From assembly GCA_022844165.1 (NCBI GenBank), contig JALHMH010000050.1:1-28902 (forward strand): a DNA stretch of 28,902 nt, written 5' to 3'. Of the stretch, positions 16,050 through 25,900 are shown one piece after another. Each line of letters starts with the position of its first letter. Position 1 is the stretch's first letter. Source of the DNA: Lysobacterales bacterium (GTDB lineage: Bacteria > Pseudomonadota > Gammaproteobacteria > Xanthomonadales > SZUA-5). The notes under the pieces are model-generated. The model had not been told where the DNA came from. It did not search any database and saw only the letters and a program-made list of their open reading frames with translations. The position numbers and the translations under genes were made by a program.

Positions 16050-17155
16050 CGCTCGAAGAGATCGAGGCCAAAAGTTATCTGGTCGGCGGTGCAGTGCGCG
16101 ATCGCTTGCTCGGCCGCACGGTCGAAGATCGCGATTTTGTGGTTGTCGGCGTGTCTCCAGCCGCCATGTTGAGCGCCGGTTTTCAGGCGGTGGGCGCTGA
16201 TTTCCCGGTGTTCTTGCACCCGACGACCCGCGAGGAATACGCACTGGCGCGCACCGAGCGCAAATCGGGTCATGGTTACACAGGGTTCGTCGTGCACGCC
16301 GGGCCAGAGGTGACGCTCGAAGACGATTTGCGACGCCGCGATTTTACGATCAACGCCATGGCACTAGACCATCGCGGCACGGTCATCGATCCGTACGGCG
16401 GGCTATCCGATCTGGCGGCAGGCGTGTTGCGCCATGTCTCAGAAGCATTTGCCGAAGACCCGGTACGCATTTTGCGCGCGGCGAGATTTTTGGCGCGTTA
16501 CGTCCACTGTCGTCTGGCGGCCGAAACGCTGGACATGATGCGTGCGATGGTCGCCAACGGGGAAGTCGATCACCTGGTGCCCGAACGCGTCTGGCAAGAG
16601 CTGAAACGGGCTTTACTCGAAACCAGACCGAGTGCATTTTTAGCGTGTCTGCGCGATTGCGGCGCGCTCGTGCGAATCCTTCCGGAGCTTTGCGACGTGG
16701 CGCCGGCGATCGACCGTAGCGGTACCGCTGCCCCCGGCGATGATTTGATCGCCTATGCTGTACTGTGCGCGGAGTTAAGCCCCACAGCGGCTCTGCAATT
16801 GAGCACAAGGCTCAAGGTGCCCGGCGAACATCGCGACCTGGCCCGGCTGGTGTCTGCCAGGCGCTCTACGTATGAGCTATACGCCTCACTCGATGCCGAA
16901 CAACGGCTCTTGCTATTCGAATTCACGGACGCGATGCGCCGCCCCGAACGCGCCTTGCAGTTTGCCCAAGCCTGCGCAATCGCCGGGAACGCACCAGGCA
17001 ATCCTCAGTTCGCCGAAGACGTGCAGCGTATTCGCCGGGTCGATGTGGCCGGCTGCATCGCGGCGGGATTCACAGGCGCCGCCTTGGGCACGGAGTTGCG
17101 CCGGCGGCGATTGGCAATACTCACATCGTCCCCCGACGAATCGGATTGTGCATGA
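16046..17155 (+). CDS. cca: CCA-adding tRNA nucleotidyltransferase, short form without HD motif
   Basis: YLVGGAVRD, DRDFVV, EEYALARTERKSG.GY.GF, EDDLRRRDFTINAMA, EDPVRILRAARF, ERVWQE; GTG start at 16046 overlaps the peptidase stop. Confidence 0.93.
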   Translation: MTLEEIEAKSYLVGGAVRDRLLGRTVEDRDFVVVGVSPAAMLSAGFQAVGADFPVFLHPTTREEYALARTERKSGHGYTGFVVHAGPEVTLEDDLRRRDFTINAMALDHRGTVIDPYGGLSDLAAGVLRHVSEAFAEDPVRILRAARFLARYVHCRLAAETLDMMRAMVANGEVDHLVPERVWQELKRALLETRPSAFLACLRDCGALVRILPELCDVAPAIDRSGTAAPGDDLIAYAVLCAELSPTAALQLSTRLKVPGEHRDLARLVSARRSTYELYASLDAEQRLLLFEFTDAMRRPERALQFAQACAIAGNAPGNPQFAEDVQRIRRVDVAGCIAAGFTGAALGTELRRRRLAILTSSPDESDCA

Positions 17156-17598
17156 CCGAAGCCGAGCTGGAAACCGAGCTGTTGACAACCATCCCGCTGA
17201 CAAACGCAATGGCGCTGCGCGTCGGGGCGTGCGACGGTACTTCGCTGCAATTGATGGCGCCGCTTGCACCCAACATTAACGACAAAGGCTGCGCTTTCGG
17301 CGGCAGCCTCGCGAGCCTGCTGACACTGGCCTGTTGGGGCTTGGCGCGATTGACCCTGAGCCGGGCCGGACACCAGGCCGACATCTACGTCCAGGATTCG
17401 CAGCTGAGCTACTTTGCGCCCGTGTGGTCGGAGGTGATTGCCATCGCCAGCGCCGCGCCGGACGATTCGCTGCACGCGTTTGTGGACCGATTTGCGCAAC
17501 GTGGCAAAGCGCGCTTGTCGATGGTGGCGGATGTGTGCGAGGGTTCCACCTTGGCAACGCGCATGACGGCGCGCTTCGTAGCGCTACGCAAGCCCTGA
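17152..17598 (+). CDS. YiiD C-terminal-like hotdog-fold thioesterase
   Basis: IPLTNAMAL, APLAPNINDKGCAFGGSLASLLTLACWG; ATGA overlap with cca. Confidence 0.88.
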   Translation: MTEAELETELLTTIPLTNAMALRVGACDGTSLQLMAPLAPNINDKGCAFGGSLASLLTLACWGLARLTLSRAGHQADIYVQDSQLSYFAPVWSEVIAIASAAPDDSLHAFVDRFAQRGKARLSMVADVCEGSTLATRMTARFVALRKP

Positions 17599-17613
17599 CC
17601 GCAATCACTTGAC

Positions 17614-17634
17614 ACCACCAACCACCAACCACAA
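17614..17634 (+). repeat. Heptamer tandem repeat (ACCACCA)x2 plus ACCACAA
   Basis: Directly visible in the intergenic spacer, running into the AAGGA RBS of the lipoprotein gene. Confidence 0.7.
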
Positions 17635-17644
17635 GGAACAGCCC

Positions 17645-18049
17645 ATGCGTACAGGTTGGATTGTCCTGCTGGCGCTGGCGATGACGCTGCCGGCTTGCCA
17701 GAGCGCAGAGAAAAACGACAGCTTGCGAGCGCGCCTTTACCAGTACTCGGCCGCTATTCGTTGGAACGAAATCGATCAAGCACTCGCGTTCGTCGAGCCG
17801 GCGCATTTGCTCGAGCGGCCGTTCACCGAGGAGGATCGCCAACGCTGGCGTGCAACACAGGTGGCTCGCTACTTCGACGGTCCACAATCGACCGACGCCA
17901 ACGGCGATGTGCGCGTTTCAGTGCAACTGGAGCTGATCGATCGCGATTCGCAGTCGGTGCGCAGTGTGGTCGATCGCCAGGTCTGGCGTTACGACGAGGC
18001 AACCAAGACATGGTGGCTGACCACCGGGTTGCCAGACATCCGCCAGTGA
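17645..18049 (+). CDS. Conserved hypothetical lipoprotein
   Basis: AAGGA RBS; MRTGWIVLLALAMTLPAC lipobox; YSAAIRW and W.YD...K.WWL..GLP motifs. Confidence 0.8.
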   Translation: MRTGWIVLLALAMTLPACQSAEKNDSLRARLYQYSAAIRWNEIDQALAFVEPAHLLERPFTEEDRQRWRATQVARYFDGPQSTDANGDVRVSVQLELIDRDSQSVRSVVDRQVWRYDEATKTWWLTTGLPDIRQ

Positions 18050-19575
18050 ATCGCTGGATCTGGCTGCTGGCCCTGCTTCCCGCGCTCGGCGAGGCAAGCG
18101 CGCTCGAGCGTGGCAACGGGCCTGAGCCGGATTCGCTCGATCCGCATCGAGCGCAGGGTTTGTCGGCGCAACACATCCTGCGCGATCTGTTCGAGCCTCT
18201 GGTCCGAGAGCGTGCCGGGGGCGAAATCCAACTTGCGGCGGCCGAGTCGGTGCAGGTCAGCGACGATGGTCTGATCTATACCTTCCAACTGCGCACCGAT
18301 GGTCGCTACAACGACGGCGCGCCGGTGACCGCCGCCGACTTCCAGGCCAGTTTCGAACGTGCGCTGCAGGCAACGACCGGAGCGCCATACGCCGCCATGC
18401 TGGCGCCCATCCGTGGCGCCACCGGGCGCTTGAACGGCGGCGACGGGGAACTCTGCGTCGAGGCCATCGATACGTTGACGCTTCAAATCTGCCTTGAGGC
18501 GCCGCGCGGCGATTTCTTACGGCGCCTGGCGTTGCCGATCGCGATGCCGGTGCCAAAACGGATGTTCGCATCGGGTGCGCGCATGACGCGTCCGGGTGTA
18601 CTGCTCGGCAATGGCGCATACCAATTGTCCGATTGGGTACCGCAGTCGGCCATCACGTTGACCCGCAACCCACATTATCGCCAACCACCCGCGATCGAGC
18701 GCGTGCGCTATCACGTGACCGAAGACGCCGCGCAGGAGCTCAAGCGGTTCGCCGCAGGCGAGTTACATCTGACCGACACCATACCGCCCGGTTCGGCTAC
18801 ACGACTCCGCGCCGAATTTGGCGATCAACTCAGAATCGCGCCGGCTTATGCGACGTTTTTCCTGGGATTCAATCTGCGCCAACCGGCGTTGGCAAATCCG
18901 GCGCTGCGTGAGGCGCTGAGCCTCGCGATCGACCGCGATGTGCTGACGCGCTATATCACCGGAAACGGCGAGTTGCCCGCGTATTCGTTGTTGCCGAATC
19001 GGCCTTTGCCCGCGAGCGCCACAGCTGCGCAGTTCCAATCGGAAAGGGCACAACGGGCCCGCGCGCTGTTCGCCTCCGCCGGGTTTCACCGGGACACCGC
19101 GCCCACCATCGAACTACGTTACAACACCAGTCTTCTGAATCGGCGCCTGGGGCTGGCTGTGGCTGCCATGTGGCGCGAGGTGCTCGGCGTGCATACTCGA
19201 CTGCGCCATGAAGAGTGGCGGAGCTTTGTGGTCAGCCGCCGCGAGGCGCGGGTCACGATGATCTACCGTGGCGGGTGGTTCGGCGACTATCAAGACCCGG
19301 TCAATTTTTTGGAACCGTTCACGCAAAACCATGCGCTCAATGCGACGGGCTTTGCCGACGAACCATTCGATCTGCTGGTGACACAAGCCGCCGCTGGCAT
19401 CGATGCTGCCGGCGCCATCGATCGTGCCGAAAGCCGACTACTTCACGCAAATGTGCTGATCCCTCTGTTTCAATACACCAGCAAACATCTCGTCAGCGAT
19501 CAGCTGTGCGGCTTCGAGGCGCATCCGCTGGATCATCACCCAAGCAGCGAATTGAGGTTTTGCGGTACACCATGA
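18046..19575 (+). CDS. oppA: Oligopeptide ABC transporter substrate-binding protein
   Basis: GTG start overlapping the previous stop; RGNGPEPDSLDPH, DLFEPLV, SDDGLIYTFQLR, PVTAADF, NGAYQL, LREALSLAIDR, GWFGDYQDP. Confidence 0.9.
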   Translation: MNRWIWLLALLPALGEASALERGNGPEPDSLDPHRAQGLSAQHILRDLFEPLVRERAGGEIQLAAAESVQVSDDGLIYTFQLRTDGRYNDGAPVTAADFQASFERALQATTGAPYAAMLAPIRGATGRLNGGDGELCVEAIDTLTLQICLEAPRGDFLRRLALPIAMPVPKRMFASGARMTRPGVLLGNGAYQLSDWVPQSAITLTRNPHYRQPPAIERVRYHVTEDAAQELKRFAAGELHLTDTIPPGSATRLRAEFGDQLRIAPAYATFFLGFNLRQPALANPALREALSLAIDRDVLTRYITGNGELPAYSLLPNRPLPASATAAQFQSERAQRARALFASAGFHRDTAPTIELRYNTSLLNRRLGLAVAAMWREVLGVHTRLRHEEWRSFVVSRREARVTMIYRGGWFGDYQDPVNFLEPFTQNHALNATGFADEPFDLLVTQAAAGIDAAGAIDRAESRLLHANVLIPLFQYTSKHLVSDQLCGFEAHPLDHHPSSELRFCGTP

Positions 19576-20498
19576 AGTGGCTGAAACGGATCGGGTTGAG
19601 GATGGTTGGCACAGCGCTCACCTTGTTGGCGCTGGTCGCGGTGTGTTTGATGTTGCTGCGCGCGGTACCGGGTGGGCCGCTCGATGGCGAGCGCGAAATG
19701 CCCAGCACGGTCCGAGCGGCGATCGAGGCGCAGTACGGCCTCGATTTACCGTTTTCCGAGCAATACGGTCGTTACGTGTCGAATGCGCTCGATGGCGAAC
19801 TGGGCCCGTCAATGCAGTATCCCGACTTTAATGTCGAGGAGTTAATCGCGCTGTCGGCGCCGATCACGATCACCCTTGGATTGTTGGCCACATTCCTCGC
19901 GCTCGGTGCGGCGATCCCGATTGCCGCGGCGATTGCCGCCGAACCGATGGCCTTGCAGGCGGCGCGCACCGGCACGCTGGTGATGCTTGCGGTGCCGAAG
20001 TTTGTGCTCGCGCCGCTGCTGGTGCTGGTTTTCTCCTTGAGCCTGAATTGGCTGCCTGTCGGTGGATTTGCCTGGCGCGAGCCGCTCACCTGGGTGCTAC
20101 CGGTGGCGTGCCTCGCGCTGCCGCAGTTTTTCGTGCTGCTGCGTGTGCTGATCGAAAACATGCGCGCCGCCATGGAGAAGTCGCCGGTGATCGCTGCCCG
20201 CGCCCGAGGTTACTCGCCGCTCCGTGTCGTCACGCGCCACGCGCTGCCGCTGGCGTTGGCCCAGACCTTCGGTTTTTTCGGTCCGATTCTCGTCGCATTG
20301 CTGACCGGATCGGCCGTCATTGAGCAGGTATTCAATATTCCAGGTCTTGGCCGATACCTGGTGCAAGCCGCACTCAATCGCGACTTCACACTGCTGATCG
20401 GCTGCGTGATCACCGTCGCCACGATCACCATTGTTGCGCACTTTGTCGTCGAGAGCCTGCAGGAACTCTTCGATCCGCGCGTGCGGGCGCGGGGGTGA
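19572..20498 (+). CDS. oppB: Oligopeptide ABC transporter permease
   Basis: ATG at 19572 overlapping the oppA stop; PGGPLDGER, YGLDLP, LGPS..Y, EAA-like ARARG, GSAVIEQVFNIPGLGRYLV, DPRVR. Confidence 0.92.
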   Translation: MKWLKRIGLRMVGTALTLLALVAVCLMLLRAVPGGPLDGEREMPSTVRAAIEAQYGLDLPFSEQYGRYVSNALDGELGPSMQYPDFNVEELIALSAPITITLGLLATFLALGAAIPIAAAIAAEPMALQAARTGTLVMLAVPKFVLAPLLVLVFSLSLNWLPVGGFAWREPLTWVLPVACLALPQFFVLLRVLIENMRAAMEKSPVIAARARGYSPLRVVTRHALPLALAQTFGFFGPILVALLTGSAVIEQVFNIPGLGRYLVQAALNRDFTLLIGCVITVATITIVAHFVVESLQELFDPRVRARG

Positions 20499-21808
20499 GT
20501 GTGTGGAATGCGGGCGACAAGTGCCGCAGAATGCCGGCTCCAACACGGAGCGCAAAAGTGGCGAACTTCAAGTCCCTCTACCAGGCACTGCCGCTCGAAA
20601 AGGCGATCGGTCCGGACGACCCCCATTACGTCGACTATTACGGGAGGGGGAATGCCTATGGTTACTCAGCTGATCCGATCGCACAATTGGCGACCAGCAT
20701 TAGCTTTAGCGATCCCGAAGGCCGTGGTCTGCACCTAGTCAGTGGTCAACGAGGAACCGGTAAGAGTAGCGAGCTGACGCGGCTGAAGCACATCCTTGAG
20801 GCGGATGGATTCGAAGTCTGGTTCACTGATCTTGAAGACCTTTTCGTACTCAGCGAGCCCATCGAGATCGGCGATTTCCTGATCGGCGCGACCAGCGCTC
20901 TGGTATCGCTCGGCATCGATAGCGGCAGCGATTTTTTTGATCGACTGCGGCAGTTCTTCCAGACGGAAATAGAGGTTGAAGGCTTGACGGTGGGCGCCGA
21001 TGCCGCCGTGTTCAAGGCGGAATTGGACGTCATGTTTCGCCAAAATCCAACCATTCGCCAACGTGTGCGCGAGAAGCTACGGGCGCGCGTCGATGCCATC
21101 TGGCGGCAGACTGCCGATTACGTCGAACATCTTGCGGCAAGTCGCAATAGGCGAGTCGTTTGGATCATGGATTCCATTGACCGAGCGTCGGGCCGCTTTG
21201 ATAACGCGGCGGCGGTTGCCGACAGCATCGTCGCATTGTTCAGTCAGCATGCCGACAAGTTGCGTTTCAAGCACATCGATACCGTGGCCGTAGTTCATCC
21301 ATGGCTATCCTCGGCGACTGGGGCGGCGCTGATTCCCACGACCAGTACCTTTCTGCCCAGCATCCGTGTTCGCCAGCGCACAGGAGAGGTCGATCCGCTG
21401 CGCATCGGCTTGCTGGTCGAAATCGCTCTCCGGCGCGAGCCCGGGTTATTCGCACTGGTGGAACGCAAACATGTAGAGCAGTTGGCGTTGATGTCCGGTG
21501 GCGACTTGCGCGAGTACTTCCGACTGTTGCGCTCCTGCGCGATCAAGGGCGGTGCGGCGGCCATCGAGCCGCCAGTGAGCGCGGCTGTGGTGACTGACGT
21601 CATCAACGAGCAGCGTAACGCGATGCTGCCGATCGCGGCCGACGAGCTGGATTGGCTGCGACAGATCTCGACCAGTAAACAGGCATCGTTGAAAACTCGG
21701 GGCGACGTCCTCGCGTTGGCCCGATTGCTCAACGGCAAGTTCGTGATGAATTACCGCAACGGCGATGACTGGTACGACGTGCACCCATTGCTGTTCGATC
21801 TGCTTTGA
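20495..21808 (+). CDS. P-loop NTPase (AAA+/STAND/KAP-like, not ABC type)
   Basis: LVSGQRGTGKSSEL Walker A, VVWIMDSIDR Walker B-like, helical SGGDLREYFRL, C-terminal Y.NGDDWYDVHPLL; no LSGGQ. Start is GTG 20495 or ATG 20531. Confidence 0.85.
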   Translation: MSVWNAGDKCRRMPAPTRSAKVANFKSLYQALPLEKAIGPDDPHYVDYYGRGNAYGYSADPIAQLATSISFSDPEGRGLHLVSGQRGTGKSSELTRLKHILEADGFEVWFTDLEDLFVLSEPIEIGDFLIGATSALVSLGIDSGSDFFDRLRQFFQTEIEVEGLTVGADAAVFKAELDVMFRQNPTIRQRVREKLRARVDAIWRQTADYVEHLAASRNRRVVWIMDSIDRASGRFDNAAAVADSIVALFSQHADKLRFKHIDTVAVVHPWLSSATGAALIPTTSTFLPSIRVRQRTGEVDPLRIGLLVEIALRREPGLFALVERKHVEQLALMSGGDLREYFRLLRSCAIKGGAAAIEPPVSAAVVTDVINEQRNAMLPIAADELDWLRQISTSKQASLKTRGDVLALARLLNGKFVMNYRNGDDWYDVHPLLFDLL

Positions 21809-23157
21809 TGGCCGAAACCGATCTCGACGAAATCGAGCGTGTCGTCCGTGAGTTGGTCACGCGGATCGAATTTGGGCGCGGCCAGTTTCACCTGGGATTC
21901 TTGTTTTGCGAAGAGTTGTGGCTGCTGAAGTCGATCGAAGAGCAAGTTCTGGCGCGAGCTGCCAAAGTTGTCGAGTCCTTCAAGTACCGTTCTTTTAGCG
22001 CCTTCGACGTCGACTCGACCTTGGCGGCATTGCTGGGCGAGCGGCGTGAGGAAGATTTTCATGTGTTCGAGCTGCACGACCTCAGCGAGGGCGAACTAAA
22101 ACAAATTCTCGTTGTACTGAACGAGCGCCGGACTTCGTTGATCGACCGCATCGGCGGTCTGTTGGTGCTGTCGATGCGCAACTCGCTCATGGGCGAGATT
22201 GGTTTTTTGGTGCCTGATCTTTGGTCGGTACGCAGCTTCGCGACAAAGGTCGCGGCAACGCAGCAGTGGCCGCCACAGATTCTGCCAATCGGGCCCCGCG
22301 TTATCGAACTGGGTGGCGTCGCTAGCGTGTCAGTTTCCGCAAGCGCCACGCTGGATAAGCGCAAGTTACTGTTGCTCGCCTCGCATGCCTTGCGCGACGG
22401 CAAGCCGGTACAGGCGATCCGCCTAGCGCGAGAAGCAAGTGCTATCGCCACGGAGACAGGCGACTGGGCCGCGTTGGGGGCAGCGGCCGACGTACTGGAT
22501 GACTGTCTCGATTACCGGTACGCTGCGGATGCTTACAAGAACGCGCTGACCAAAGCGCCCGGGGACGTCAACGTCGCGCGTTGGGCCAGGAAGCGCGCCG
22601 AGAACCTGATCGCAATCGGGGACTTCCAAGAGGCGGCGTTGTCGATTGAGCAGGCGAGGCAAGCCACGGCGGTATTGGTGGCCGATGACCGAGAACGACT
22701 GCTGACCGAAGTGACTCTGGGTGAGCTGGAGCTGTGGCGCGGTGGAAACTTGTTCGAGCGCCACTTGCGACGAGTCGCCAGAAAAGCAAAGCCATTATCC
22801 GCTGCGGAGGTTCGTGCGCTGACCGCGCTGGCTTATGCTGCGCTCCGCAGCGATTTGGCGTTGGCGTCTGTGCGTCTCGCAGAAGCGATCGCAGGCTCCG
22901 GGTTGCGCATCGTCCGATACGGAGCTACGCCGGCACGAGTCCTGCGGCATGCGGGTTTGTTGGCGGCACAGACTTGGATTGCGCAAATTCGCAACGACGA
23001 TGACCAGCAATCCGCCGTTACCTATCTCGATTGGGCGATGAAAGAACTTGGTCGATTCCCGGCGCTGAGCAACTATCGAGAACGCTTGTCGGAGTTCGCC
23101 TCCAGGGATGCCTTCAACCGCGCAAACCCCTCCGCCATCGACACTCGTGGCACATAG
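21808..23157 (+). CDS. Hypothetical protein: alpha/beta (probably degenerate NTPase) N-terminal domain plus TPR-like helical C-terminus
   Basis: TGATG coupling to the NTPase; N-domain LNERR...PDLWSVRS; Ala/Leu-rich helical repeats (AIRLAREA, AADAYKNAL, IGDFQEAALSIEQA, LGELELWRG). Confidence 0.72.
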   Translation: MAETDLDEIERVVRELVTRIEFGRGQFHLGFLFCEELWLLKSIEEQVLARAAKVVESFKYRSFSAFDVDSTLAALLGERREEDFHVFELHDLSEGELKQILVVLNERRTSLIDRIGGLLVLSMRNSLMGEIGFLVPDLWSVRSFATKVAATQQWPPQILPIGPRVIELGGVASVSVSASATLDKRKLLLLASHALRDGKPVQAIRLAREASAIATETGDWAALGAAADVLDDCLDYRYAADAYKNALTKAPGDVNVARWARKRAENLIAIGDFQEAALSIEQARQATAVLVADDRERLLTEVTLGELELWRGGNLFERHLRRVARKAKPLSAAEVRALTALAYAALRSDLALASVRLAEAIAGSGLRIVRYGATPARVLRHAGLLAAQTWIAQIRNDDDQQSAVTYLDWAMKELGRFPALSNYRERLSEFASRDAFNRANPSAIDTRGT

Positions 23158-24083
23158 CCAAAATCGCGCTCCGCTGCGCTGATGTTGTACCAGTGGGCGC
23201 TTGCGAGGTGTTCGGCGACGAAGCGTGTCATCAGCGGCTCGCCTTTGAGGTTGAGCTTGCTGTAGATCTGCTCTAACAGCCAACCGGCGCCGTAGGCGAG
23301 GCTAAACGGCATGCGGGCGTGCACCGGCGGCAGGCCGGCACAAGCGAGCAGGCCATTGATCACATCTTCGATCGCCATCGGTTCGCCGTTGCTGATGAAA
23401 TACGCGCGCCCCGAGTGGTCGCTGCCCGGAAATAAATGCTGCGCGGCAAGCAAATGCGCGTCGACCGCGTTGTCGATGTAGGTGGTGTCGATGCGTTTGC
23501 CCTTGGCGCCAATGAACTTCAAGCGCCCGGCTTTGGCGCGGGCGACGATGCGCGGCAGCAGGTGCTGGTCCCCCGGGCCCCAGATTAAATGCGGTCGCAG
23601 CGCGACAGTCGCAAAATCCGGCGCGTTTTCGATCAGCACGATGCGCTCGGCTTGCATTTTCGTGTACGGGTAGTGCGCCAGGTAACGCGCTGCGTATCGC
23701 ACCGATTCGTCGACGCCTTCCAGATCGTGCCCGGCGTGAACCACGCTGGGCGTGGACGTGTAAACAAGGCGCGCAATGCCGTTCGTGCGGCACGCGCGGA
23801 TCACATTCTCGGTGCCGGTCACATTGGCAGCATGGTATTGCGCATATGGACCCCAATGGCCCGCTTTCGCCGCCACGTGAAACACCTGATCGCAGCCTTG
23901 TGCGGCGCGAGCTACGCTGGATAGATCGGCCAGGTCGCCTTGCACAACTTCCACGCCGATGGCCTCCAGCGCGGGTGCCGCGGAGCGCTGCAAGGCGACG
24001 ACGTGTTTACCCTGCTCGCGCAGGCGCCTGCAGATGGCGCCGCCCAGGAATCCGCTGCCGCCGGTGACCAATGAGCGACTCAT
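23073..24083 (-). CDS. oleD: 2-alkyl-3-oxoalkanoate reductase OleD (3-beta-HSD-like extended SDR)
   Basis: LVTGGSGFLG, FHVAAKAG.WG, YTSTPSVVH, YPYTK, ALRPHLIWGPGD; overlaps oleC. Confidence 0.9.
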   Translation of the reverse strand: MSRSLVTGGSGFLGGAICRRLREQGKHVVALQRSAAPALEAIGVEVVQGDLADLSSVARAAQGCDQVFHVAAKAGHWGPYAQYHAANVTGTENVIRACRTNGIARLVYTSTPSVVHAGHDLEGVDESVRYAARYLAHYPYTKMQAERIVLIENAPDFATVALRPHLIWGPGDQHLLPRIVARAKAGRLKFIGAKGKRIDTTYIDNAVDAHLLAAQHLFPGSDHSGRAYFISNGEPMAIEDVINGLLACAGLPPVHARMPFSLAYGAGWLLEQIYSKLNLKGEPLMTRFVAEHLASAHWYNISAAERDFGYVPRVSMAEGFARLKASLEANSDKRSR

Positions 24084-25795
24084 ATCGTACGTTCCGCGCC
24101 GGCGGCGGCCGGCAGCGCAACGCCGAGACGGGCGCTGGCCCAGGCTTGCAGGTACTCACGGCCGATTTTGGCGTTGTGTCGGATGTCGACCGGAAATCGC
24201 GGATAAAAGAGTACGCGCTGGATGTCTCGTGTATGCGCGTGGCGACGTGCCAGAACAATTAACTCCTCACGTATCCGCTCGTGCTGTTCGCGCCCGATGT
24301 CGGGTTCGAGTTCGACGACCAGCACCGGCTCCTGCTGGCCCTTGGCGCCAACGCCGACCAGCGCGCTCCGGAACACCTGCGGGTGGGTATTGAAAATCGG
24401 TTCGACCTGCTCGGTACAAATGGGTCCGGAGGCGGTCTCGACGCGCTGACTTCTGCGCCCGCACATCCATAACCGCCCGCCGTCGTCGAAGTAGCCCAGG
24501 TCGCCCATACGGTGAACGCTGCGCTCGCCTTCGCGAATTTTGCCGATCGCATCGGCCTCGGGGCGGTTGAAGTAACGCTCGGTGGCGGTGGGTCCTGCCA
24601 CGGTAATCTCGCCGACGGTGCCGGTGGGAACTTCCAAATCGTCTTGCCACTGGGCGATCGGTGCATCGCTGATTTTGATGATGCGTACCTCATTGGGCGT
24701 GACGACACGACCGACCAGGGTGCCGGCGCCATGCTCGGTCCGCGCCCGCGCGAAATCTGTGAGCTCTCGCCCTTCGACGACGGCAACCGGCAAGCACTCG
24801 GTGGCCCCATACGGCGTCCAGAGCGTGGCATCGTCGGGCAGAAGCTTGCGCATGCGTTCCACCACCGCCACGGGCACCGGTGCGCCCGCCGAGATAACGC
24901 GTTTGAGCGTGGGCAGTTTGACGCCACGTGGTGCGCCCCAGCGCGACAGCGCATTGACCAAAGCGGGCGAAGCGAACATGTTGGTCACGCCGAAATCGTG
25001 GATCGTCTGGATCAGCTTGGACGGATCAGCCATCGCCGGTCGCGTTGGATCCATTTCCGGGATCACGGTGGTCATGCCCAGTGCCGGATCGAACAACGCA
25101 AATGGTGGGAAGGTCGGCAAGTCGATTTCGCCAGGGCGAATGTCGAATGCCTCACGCAGTAAATCGACCTGAGCCAGGAAATGCCGATGCTGATACACCA
25201 CGCCCTTGGGTACGCCCGTCGAACCCGAGGTAAACAGCACCGCCGCCATATCGTCGGCGCGCGTGTCGGCGAGCATGGCCGGGCAACGCTTGCGTGCATC
25301 GTTGCCATCGCGGCCGATCTTCAGCACTTCGGCGTAACTGTGCCCGCCGAACGGGAATTTGGGGCCAACCACCACCAGCTTCTTCACCGTCGCGCGTCCC
25401 CAACCGAGCGCAACGCGGGCCGCGTGTGCCAGCGGAATGCCGATAAATGCGGCCGGCTCGGCCTCGTTCAAACACTTCTTGAGTGCGGTTCGGGCGATGC
25501 CCGGGTCGACCAACACTGGCACGGCACCGGCCTTGAACAGGGCGAACATCAGCACAAAGAGCTCGACGCTGGGCCGTACCATCAGCACCGTGCGCACGCC
25601 GCGACCGATGCCAATTTGTGTCAGACCATGTGCGATCGCATCAGATTCTTCGTCGAGCTGCGCGTATGTCAGATGGGTATGCGCCGGGCGACCGGCCAGA
25701 TCGCTGCCGCAGGGGACAAAAATCGCGATTTGGTGTGGCCGCTCGCTGGCCATGCGGGTCAGTGCGCTGGCGATATTGGCCGATTGCAATACCAT
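24080..25795 (-). CDS. oleC: Olefin beta-lactone synthetase OleC (AMP-dependent ligase)
   Basis: NIASAL, AVPVLVDPG, FTSGSTGVPKGV, DLPTFPPFALF, TPYGATECLPV, HRMGDLG, FPVDIRHNAKIGRE; adjacent to oleD. Confidence 0.92.
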   Translation of the reverse strand: MVLQSANIASALTRMASERPHQIAIFVPCGSDLAGRPAHTHLTYAQLDEESDAIAHGLTQIGIGRGVRTVLMVRPSVELFVLMFALFKAGAVPVLVDPGIARTALKKCLNEAEPAAFIGIPLAHAARVALGWGRATVKKLVVVGPKFPFGGHSYAEVLKIGRDGNDARKRCPAMLADTRADDMAAVLFTSGSTGVPKGVVYQHRHFLAQVDLLREAFDIRPGEIDLPTFPPFALFDPALGMTTVIPEMDPTRPAMADPSKLIQTIHDFGVTNMFASPALVNALSRWGAPRGVKLPTLKRVISAGAPVPVAVVERMRKLLPDDATLWTPYGATECLPVAVVEGRELTDFARARTEHGAGTLVGRVVTPNEVRIIKISDAPIAQWQDDLEVPTGTVGEITVAGPTATERYFNRPEADAIGKIREGERSVHRMGDLGYFDDGGRLWMCGRRSQRVETASGPICTEQVEPIFNTHPQVFRSALVGVGAKGQQEPVLVVELEPDIGREQHERIREELIVLARRHAHTRDIQRVLFYPRFPVDIRHNAKIGREYLQAWASARLGVALPAAAGAERTI

Positions 25796-25900
25796 GCCGG
25801 TCTCGATCGATTCGGGTGGCGAAGGCTCGCCGGTTTATCGTAAGGCGTCAAACGGCAATCTCAGGTCCAAGCCGGACGCGTCGCCAACAGCGCGCTGTCA

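Follow-up and report, generated by a model that had tools for sequence, protein, structure and literature searches.

What is the function of two coupled genes that lie between, and are unrelated to, an oppB-like and an oleD-like gene in a Lysobacterales bacterium? The locus is found on contig JALHMH010000050.1 of GenBank assembly GCA_022844165.1, of which we analysed positions 1 to 28,902 of the forward strand (this whole stretch of 28,902 nucleotides is called the window below). A first-pass annotation of the DNA letters had read the pair, here gene 1 and gene 2, as a split sensor-switch, in which an active P-loop NTPase hetero-oligomerises with an inactive paralogous domain carrying a variable tetratricopeptide repeat (TPR) sensor. 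Our analysis indicated that the feature is real and its architecture well supported; paired active/inactive STAND-like logic is already in print, so the idea is not wholly new. On balance we favour, with some reserve, a split STAND/NLR-like sensor-switch of an accessory conflict system, with a role in defence included, most likely against phages or mobile elements.

The list of open reading frames (ORFs) of the window contains both genes on the plus strand (20495..21808 and 21805/21808..23157). Their junction reads CTT TGA TGG, and the stop codon TGA (21806-21808) and the start codon ATG (21808-21810) have one base in common. Domain searches identified SBP_bac_5 and BPD_transp_1 genes (oppA/oppB-like) on the 5' side of the pair, and 3Beta_HSD/Epimerase and AMP-binding genes (oleD/oleC-like), convergent and on the minus strand, on the 3' side. 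The ORF list, the junction letters and these flanking matches confirmed the TGATG overlap of two ORFs between oppB and oleD. Gene 1 could begin at any of three codons: GTG 20495, overlapping the stop codon of the permease gene before it; ATG 20531; or GTG 20558, which matches a 416-aa gene 1 product in the protein collection. Residues are numbered from ATG 20531 for gene 1 (425 aa) and from ATG 21808 for gene 2 (449 aa). All motifs quoted at first pass for the two genes were present at the positions read, and chance was ruled out as their source because they coincide with invariant or nearly invariant columns in relatives.

A word search gave 23 relatives of gene 1. Residues G72, G77, K78, D214, R302, G323, G324, R327, N410, W414 and P419 are invariant in 23 gene 1 sequences; S215, Y408 and G411 (n = 23) and H418 of the VHP motif (n = 16) are nearly so. 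GQRGTGKS conforms to the Walker A pattern GxxGxGK[ST], and VVWIMD, on the third core strand, to the Walker B pattern hhhhD, with S or G, not E, after D214 and an acidic residue at +3 (D[SG]x[DE]). The helical lid carries the invariant sensor-2 arginine R327 in a region that aligns to RFC lids; distant paralogues have SGGHPR in place of SGGDLR. The WYDVHP motif occupies residues 414-419. Pfam models gave AAA_16 at E 1.4e-5 (below the cut-off), AAA_22 below threshold and nSTAND_NTPase5 at E 0.01. A gene 1 profile compared with solved structures pointed to clamp-loader/RFC subunits at the P-loop and the sensor-2 lid, with best E-values of about 1e-3 and coverage of the P-loop or the lid only.

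The AlphaFold2 (AF2) model of gene 1 (pLDDT, predicted local distance difference test, 88.9; pTM, predicted template modelling score, 0.88) consists of an alpha/beta core, a helical insert (113-204) between strands 2 and 3, a lid and a winged helix. The top 11 Foldseek matches were Orc1, Cdc6 or archaeal ORC chains (E 1.1e-8 to 3.2e-7; template modelling (TM) score 0.35-0.48; best match 7jk6_A, E 1.1e-8), followed by TnsC, the archaeal ATPases 2fna and 2qen, NOD2, RdrA and mS29. Gene 1 therefore has the Orc1/Cdc6-type layout of AAA+ base, lid and C-terminal winged helix at fold level only; library searches found no sequence-family match. In STAND NTPases the helical domain typically contains a GxP-type motif, and the winged helix a conserved histidine. 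The gene 1 polypeptide stops after its winged helix, and the sensor repeats of STAND NTPases are not on it. An ABC-type ATPase was considered for gene 1 and rejected, the fold being AAA+ and SGGDLR being located in the lid. The motif columns and the AAA+ fold agree with the first-pass description of an intact Walker A and a Walker B-like strand without an ABC signature. As judged from its model, gene 1 is an intact AAA+ switch with an ORC/Cdc6-STAND layout.

Gene 2 residues 1-160 (the N-domain) had no Pfam match, and a profile of 77 N-domains found no relative by sequence among solved structures. The AF2 model built from the 77-row alignment (pLDDT 86.5, pTM 0.80) showed an N-terminal helix and then five strands with helices between them. 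Foldseek returned 34 matches in the PDB at E <= 1e-3 (query TM 0.36-0.54), and all those listed were AAA+/STAND proteins, including Hda, clamp-loader delta, Sir3, ORC subunits, RuvB, Avs4, CED-4, ZAR1 and Rif2. VIA-align, a method independent of Foldseek, ranked Cdc6/Orc1 2qby_B and Orc4 7tjf_D first (Z 11.2; root-mean-square deviation 3.5-3.7 over 142-146 residues) and gave Avs5 a Z of 10.9. Known inactive AAA+ subunits, namely clamp-loader delta, Sir3, Rif2 and ORC subunits, were among the closest structures. The consensus of 77 or of 113 N-domains has neither GK[ST] after the first strand nor an acidic Walker B. Only N105, R108, D137 and R142 are invariant in the 77 N-domains, and the 113-row alignment also has P136 and W139 as invariant; PDLWSVRS occupies residues 136-143. 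R142 stands directly before the last core strand of the model, a position that is presumably equal to that of the arginine finger in the clamp-loader Box VII motif 'SRC'. AF2, Foldseek, VIA-align and the consensus all agree with the earlier reading of a P-loop-type fold without Walker A, and they indicate that residues 1-160 are, as modelled, a nucleotide-dead AAA+ core.

The N-domain also resembles the cores of Rubisco activase, NSF D2 and ClpB (Z 9.5-10.2), and TPR adaptors commonly bring clients to ATPases. The pair might accordingly remodel or assemble proteins as a chaperone in which a TPR adaptor recruits the clients of an AAA+ motor. We consider this highly improbable in view of the winged helix and ORC/Cdc6-type layout of gene 1, and since the distribution is sporadic and the clients would have to vary.

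We modelled the complex of gene 1 (23-row alignment), ATP and the gene 2 N-domain (77 rows) in three runs, together with three controls. The partner score (ipSAE, an interface score) was 0.87, 0.84 and 0.87 in the three runs, and the best control reached 0.20. The runs agreed in at least 67% of contacts, with a partner pLDDT of at least 78. On gene 1, the predicted interface comprises the N-terminal helix (6-23), the P-loop (74-75), 100-108, 218-223 just past Walker B, R327, the lid helix (331-343), 360-368 and 398-403. On gene 2, it comprises 11-31, 98-112 (LNERR) and 128-147 (PDLWSVR); the interface residues within the motif segments are 98-99, 102-103, 105-110 and 112, and 136-137 and 139-147. 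In the model, R327 of gene 1 contacts residue 140 of gene 2, and residue 331 contacts residues 142-144. The model places all four invariant gene 2 residues (N105, R108, D137 and R142) on the surface that caps the nucleotide site of gene 1. The scores thus support, at the level of a model, the proposed hetero-oligomerisation of the two proteins. The ATP site is probably composite, lying between gene 1 and gene 2, with a trans-acting arginine that gene 2 probably contributes to the gene 1 site. Inactive neighbours give an arginine to an active site in this way in Orc4 with Orc1 and in delta-prime with gamma.

The pairing was examined across relatives. A pattern-limited scan of one genome per species (185,579 species) gave 196 stretches, 160 of them with a gene 1 relative. 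The loci studied were the best 80 of these 160 relatives, the window and three paralogues from relatives, making 84 distinct loci. The carriers included Lysobacterales, Methylococcales, Burkholderiales, Rhodocyclales, Syntrophales, Acidobacteriota, Myxococcota, Verrucomicrobiota and others; cultivable Methylomonas and Trinickia isolates are among those with the pair. At 81 of the 84 loci, gene 1 is followed by an ORF that carries the N-domain, as judged with a hidden Markov model (HMM) that was grown from the same loci and is partly circular; its first round, with the window domain alone, found 39 ORFs. The exceptions are L006, which has a divergent partner with the same motif pattern by eye, L029, in which the DNA downstream of gene 1 is masked, and L055, in which the next gene is a NACHT-FGS gene without the N-domain. 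At 75/84 loci, the start of the partner ORF overlaps the gene 1 stop or lies at most 33 nt beyond it; ORF starts were taken as the first possible start codon, and exact overlaps are uncertain. A partner was also present at 12/12 far more distant paralogous loci from three genomes (10 by HMM, 2 by eye) and at both plasmid loci read. No third gene recurs beside the pair, the next neighbour cluster (threonine synthase) having 11 loci. These counts showed that the pairing is near-obligate, as an obligate partnership would lead one to expect in a neighbourhood survey. At two loci (L028:7274-7687 and L035:7289-8280) gene 1 is intact but its partner is truncated or fragmented, with 137 aa or with pieces that lie in different frames; these partners are possibly decaying copies.

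The N-domain profile, searched against 1.84 billion entries, matched 2999 cluster representatives (clusters at 50% identity) at E <= 1e-3, 1313 at 1e-10 and 274 at 1e-30. The N-domain begins within the first 20 residues in 149 of 150 listed representatives, whose lengths are 122-850, and none of the 150 has it where a fusion to gene 1 would put it.

The C-terminal arm of gene 2 had been described as TPR-like helices of variable type. Among 113 scanned representatives, TPR_12 was found in 76, TPR_10 in 64, TPR_MalT in 27, MIT in 4 and TIR_2 in 2 (the listing covers the 25 commonest of 63 families). BLAST against TPR arms found 118/131 representatives with a C-terminus of at least 60 residues to be TPR-like, and among 30 longer proteins found with the N-domain profile every Pfam-annotated one was TPR. 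True TPR_12/TPR_10 arrays are therefore the rule in relatives; for the window copy, the TPR assignment was not confirmed. On the window arm, Pfam TPR models reached E 0.13-0.33 only, hhalign against the TPR arms of relatives gave a probability of 0.1, and a profile search of solved structures found nothing below E 0.06. Its language-model look-alikes (Atlas) are TPR clusters (0.93-0.94; 141-165 shared features), which we treat as a lead. The clade of the window, L007 and L008 shares an arm of about 285 residues without a Pfam match or profile similarity to TPR arms.

Other arms occur occasionally. TIR_2 arms are found in P0025 and in the L056 product, a SEFIR/TIR arm in P0072, and WYL plus WCX in P0143. 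In L039 (Parabeggiatoa) the N-domain is followed by NACHT and FGE-sulfatase, and two Enhygromyxa partners have a second AAA_16/AAA_22 module. The gene 1 products of L030 and L056 are 80% identical; L056 has the TIR arm, and the L030 arm, cut at the contig end, aligns with the TPR arm of L067 (73% over 118 residues). Gene 2 also diverges faster. At gene 1 identities of at least 90% (7 pairs), the median identities of gene 1, N-domain and arm were 96%, 89% and 81%; at 70-90% (78 pairs), 75%, 66% and 59%; and at 50-70% (319 pairs), 58%, 47% and 49%. Gene 2 was the faster in 7/7, 71-78/78 and 283-304/319 of these pairs, which are not independent of one another. The C-termini are thus variable as proposed, mostly TPR with rare TIR/SEFIR, WYL-WCX and NACHT-FGS forms. 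A separate observation concerns Parabeggiatoa, in which NACHT plus FGE-sulfatase proteins stand after gene 1 homologues at L039:8219-11425 and L055:4383-7142; the former has an N-terminal docking domain and lies 930 nt downstream, and the latter has a hydrophobic N-terminus and no such domain.

The gene 1 query matched 3 of 39 related genomes, the window genome included. Apart from the window genome, gene 1 was present in 2/22 genomes of its family and in none of the other families sampled; in the family of a Zoogloea-labelled metagenome-assembled genome (MAG; L049), it was present in 5/61, that MAG included. Single genomes may have many copies, with 11 matches in Enhygromyxa salina and 6 in a Comamonadaceae MAG. 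The cassette is accessory and sporadic, not a housekeeping locus, in line with the first-pass reading. In L026, L028, L049, L053 and other betaproteobacterial loci, the genes on either side of the pair are those for homoserine dehydrogenase and threonine synthase. This hom-thrC placement is found in a subset of Burkholderiales and Rhodocyclales genomes (7 hom and 9 thrC among 118 immediate neighbours of 74 loci), and together with the count of 5/61 genomes it suggests a recurrent insertion site or repeated loss.

In a genome of the same genus (G001), 140 bp without the pair separate the opp and oleC-oleD blocks, and the ole block has the opposite orientation to that in the window (G001:C2:104058-110326, against window positions 17152-20498 and 23110-25855). 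The rest of the window, both outer flanks included, had no match in the 39 kb of G001 compared. Because the ole block is inverted and nothing else in the window matched, the pair is located at a rearrangement or synteny breakpoint in the window genome; a simple insertion into conserved synteny was rejected on the same grounds. G001 has a copy of its own, 60% identical, beside an error-prone-polymerase-like DNA polymerase III alpha gene.

Nine plasmid records contain a full-length gene 1 homologue (24-30% identity), from Nostoc, Acaryochloris, Calothrix and Acidisarcina, named 'KAP family NTPase', 'P-loop NTPase fold protein' or similar by the annotation pipeline PGAP. On Acaryochloris marina plasmid pREC1, the pair stands beside a NACHT gene, HicAB and two integrases; its 1920-aa partner (L114, 7299-13061) matches the docking domain over its first 138 residues and overlaps the 'KAP family NTPase' gene by 4 nt. 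On Acidisarcina pACPOL1, the pair is near a CHAT-TPR pair, an IS6 transposase and an integrase. The plasmid copies and the breakpoint raise the alternative of a DNA-transaction ATPase pair of a cryptic mobile element, in which a loader or target selector resembling ORC/Cdc6, TnsC or MuB would work with an adaptor subunit in the replication, partition or transposition of its carrier element. Gene 1 matches Orc1/Cdc6 and TnsC in structure, the N-domain also matches TnsC and DnaC, and 3/113 partners have weak Phage-MuB_C matches. Nevertheless, the genes found beside the pair include no recurrent transposase, integrase or replication gene, the window has no flanking repeats, the unit is only two genes long in very different contexts, and long TPR arrays and TIR arms are foreign to known loaders. 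We therefore regard a mobile-element loader as very unlikely.

Under the split sensor-switch that we favour, gene 1 would be the active subunit, with its P-loop, Walker B aspartate, lid with sensor-2 arginine and winged helix. The gene 2 N-domain would have lost nucleotide binding and would pack its invariant polar face on the P-loop, R327 and lid helix of gene 1. The variable arm may serve as an input or output module, with the TPR array binding the trigger in most relatives. A trigger on the arm would alter the pseudo-ATPase/ATPase interface and so set off ATP-dependent oligomerisation or hydrolysis. In the TPR form, the effector could be the ATPase itself or an unlinked partner. We read the cassette as a conflict system because of its patchy distribution, its many diverging copies, its fast-evolving arm and the occasional TIR/SEFIR, WYL and NACHT-FGS arms; a role in defence is likely.

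A bolder version, which we put forward as a rather doubtful possibility, is a new class of split NLR-like receptor with a composite nucleotide site, in which the sensor-bearing pseudo-ATPase supplies the catalytic arginine and the ATPase is the effector of the TPR form. The sensor would then bind a phage or plasmid protein, and the ATPase would either assemble on DNA through its invariant winged helix or burn ATP, so that replication stops. The pseudo-AAA+ domain would be a portable adaptor that plugs TPR, TIR/SEFIR, WYL or whole NACHT receptors into one ATPase.

Several results weigh against the sensor-switch in a conflict system. The fold of gene 1 is nearest to Orc1/Cdc6 and not to a classic STAND protein, and the word 'paralogous', used at first pass for the inactive domain, is supported at fold level only. 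The score mark of the complex model was reached by 58/80 solved complexes and 2/110 mismatched pairs, counts that are only roughly valid here because our own alignments and a riding ATP were used. The pass may also partly reflect the model's memory of AAA+ subunit interfaces, since these are well represented among solved structures. The arm of the window copy is not demonstrably TPR, TIR, WYL and NACHT arms are rare (about 3/150 of the closest representatives), and the window pair contains no nuclease, TIR or other effector; this last result agrees with the earlier remark that no effector is visible in the pair. No homologue was found in 50,697 phage records, and the pair matched none of 5027 PADLOC-DB 2.0.0 models. 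As for its being uncharacterised, the pair is absent from the libraries searched, but a conceptually very similar two-gene system, nSTAND2, is described in the parts of the literature covered.

The neighbours bear on the same question. The 118 immediate neighbours were mostly housekeeping genes (threonine synthase 9, homoserine dehydrogenase 7, GreA 3). PADLOC matches among them (E <= 1e-5) were mad2/mad3 (2) and TPR (2), with single matches to IetS, a DRT model, a type II MTase, BrxH, SngC, PsyrT and DpdF. There is no evident defence-island enrichment, contrary to what the first-pass annotation had led us to look for, and this is either adverse or neutral to the favoured reading. The split sensor-switch as a whole is thus upheld by the folds, the predicted binding, the pairing, the variable arms and the sporadic spread, with the islands as the part that did not stand.

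Ordinary metabolic neighbours would also suit a split MalT/AfsR-type signalling or regulatory switch, independent of housekeeping, in which a ligand from the cell or its environment would be detected by the TPR arm and the winged helix of gene 1 would bind DNA to govern transcription or some other DNA transaction of the host. The winged helix at the end of gene 1 is of the Orc1/Cdc6 kind, MalT-like TPR models match 27/113 partner proteins, one partner has the regulator-type module WYL-WCX, and the family is expanded in large signalling-rich genomes such as Enhygromyxa. Such a regulator is nonetheless unlikely. No conserved target genes lie nearby, the next commonest neighbour cluster having 11 loci, and the pair is patchy among close relatives. 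That the winged-helix motif is invariant from phylum to phylum is easier to reconcile with a conserved contact, structural or to a protein, than with operator DNA that varies, and TIR/SEFIR and NACHT-FGS arms are not regulator modules.

Features of the gene 1-gene 2 cassette in the window (positions are those of the window; folds and interfaces are as predicted)
Feature	Position	Strand	Basis
Gene 1, AAA+ ATPase with ORC/Cdc6-like base, lid and winged helix	20495..21808	+	ORF, AF2 model, Foldseek, PDB profile
Walker A / P-loop GQRGTGKS, residues 72-79	20744..20767	+	Invariant columns
Walker B strand VVWIMDSID, residues 209-217	21155..21181	+	D214 invariant, model strand 209-214
Lid motif SGGDLR, residues 322-327, sensor-2-type R327	21494..21511	+	Invariant columns, RFC lid alignment
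Winged-helix hairpin NGDDWYDVHPL	21758..21790	+	Conserved columns, model strands 405-410 and 412-417
TGATG stop/start overlap, gene 1-gene 2	21806..21810	+	Read directly
Gene 2 N-domain, predicted pseudo-AAA+ core, docking domain	21808..22287	+	AF2, Foldseek, VIA-align
LNERR motif, gene 2 residues 104-108, N105 and R108 invariant	22117..22131	+	Alignment columns, predicted interface
PDLWSVR motif, D137 and R142 invariant	22213..22233	+	Alignment columns, predicted interface
Gene 2 C-terminal arm, about 285 residues	22300..23157	+	TPR in most relatives, weakly TPR-like here

The GC content of the pair (0.59-0.62) is close to that of its flanks. Scans for promoters and terminators around the pair, and for flanking repeats around it in the window, found nothing beyond chance. 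At 23073-23157, gene 2 and the convergent oleD-like gene overlap by 85 nt at their 3' ends, which leaves no space for a terminator between them. Upstream, the opp-like unit (17656-20498) consists of the solute-binding protein and one permease only, and neither a second permease nor an ATPase gene follows it in the window or in G001. A 146-aa ORF (17609-18049) with a lipoprotein-like N-terminus (LALAMTLPAC) and no Pfam match overlaps the start region annotated for the solute-binding protein ORF.

If the favoured reading is true, the cassette would be a widespread immune-type switch without a name in the libraries searched, with 2999 docking-domain representatives and at least 160 gene 1 relatives. 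Its logic would differ from that of single-chain bacterial NLRs, because the sensor would sit on a dead ATPase that completes the site of a live one. The coupling of sensing to hydrolysis could then be tested with two separable proteins, and a bacterial example would be added to the mixed active/inactive AAA+ design of ORC and clamp loaders. The cassette lies outside defence islands, so searches based on islands would miss it.

In the library searches, the best PADLOC score of gene 1 was PDC-M49A at E 0.083, over the P-loop only, and gene 2 had none; the proposed PADLOC check therefore found no match to a described defence system. No Avs or NLR model of PADLOC matched the pair. NCBIfam gave nothing below E 0.07, no Pfam match of the pair was above threshold, and PHROGs gave only a weak match of gene 2 to phrog_5050 (E 2e-4), a family whose function is not known.

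Of the known systems, KAP NTPases (PF07693) resemble gene 1 in the PGAP name of a cyanobacterial plasmid homologue and in the long helical insert between Walker A and Walker B, and KAP_NTPase is found on 14-95% of members of look-alike clusters. Inserted membrane segments are a feature of KAP NTPases. Unlike them, gene 1 of the window has no KAP_NTPase match at E <= 1. ORC and clamp loaders are likewise AAA+ assemblies that mix active and inactive subunits, and the N-domain matches delta, Orc2/3/4, Sir3 and Rif2; in contrast to them, the cassette is not a member at sequence level, stands in no replication context, bears a TPR/TIR arm and is sporadically distributed. Avs/AVAST, NB-ARC-TPR and MalT proteins share the NTPase switch, helical lid, winged helix and repeat sensor, and Avs4, Avs5, CED-4, ZAR1 and NRC2 are among the structural matches of the N-domain. 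Unlike single-chain STAND/NLR proteins, the cassette divides these parts between two proteins, places the sensor on the dead NTPase and has no N-terminal effector in the window copy.

The literature covered (PMC12803255 and PMC13092281 included) does not describe the cassette, and the supplements of these papers may hold it. The iSTAND ternary systems (Kaur et al. 2020, PMC7159879; 2021, PMC8195603) are, as described there, defined by a MoxR-vWA pair. The cassette is like iSTAND/iSTAND2 in having an inactive STAND module as a sensing or assembly component. Membership in an iSTAND/MoxR-vWA ternary system, taken by that description, was rejected, because no third gene recurs and the 25 commonest neighbour families include neither vWA nor MoxR.

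The closest description in print found is nSTAND2, a predicted two-gene counter-invader operon (Kaur, Iyer, Burroughs and Aravind, eLife 2021, PMC8195603), with which we compared the cassette by description. In the text of that paper, nSTAND2 is a mobile operon whose products are both STAND-type, one with eroded NTP-binding motifs, and a hetero-multimer is predicted. The arginine finger is kept in both, the inactive module has variable C-terminal modules, mostly GT4 or HEPN, and the family is placed near CR-ATPases and mS29/DAP3 (PMC8195603). Measured against this description, the cassette differs in that GT4 and HEPN are absent from our listings (the 25 commonest families of 113 representatives, 30 Pfam-annotated proteins and 38 partners scanned), in that the arm is TPR-like in 118/131 representatives, and in its placement, gene 1 matching Orc1/Cdc6 best and mS29 only at rank 38 in the Foldseek list. 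As to the arginine, R108 and R142 of gene 2 are invariant and lie in the modelled interface, and R302 of gene 1 is invariant. Like nSTAND2 as described, the cassette consists of two adjacent genes with a STAND-type core in both, of which one is inactive and bears the arms.

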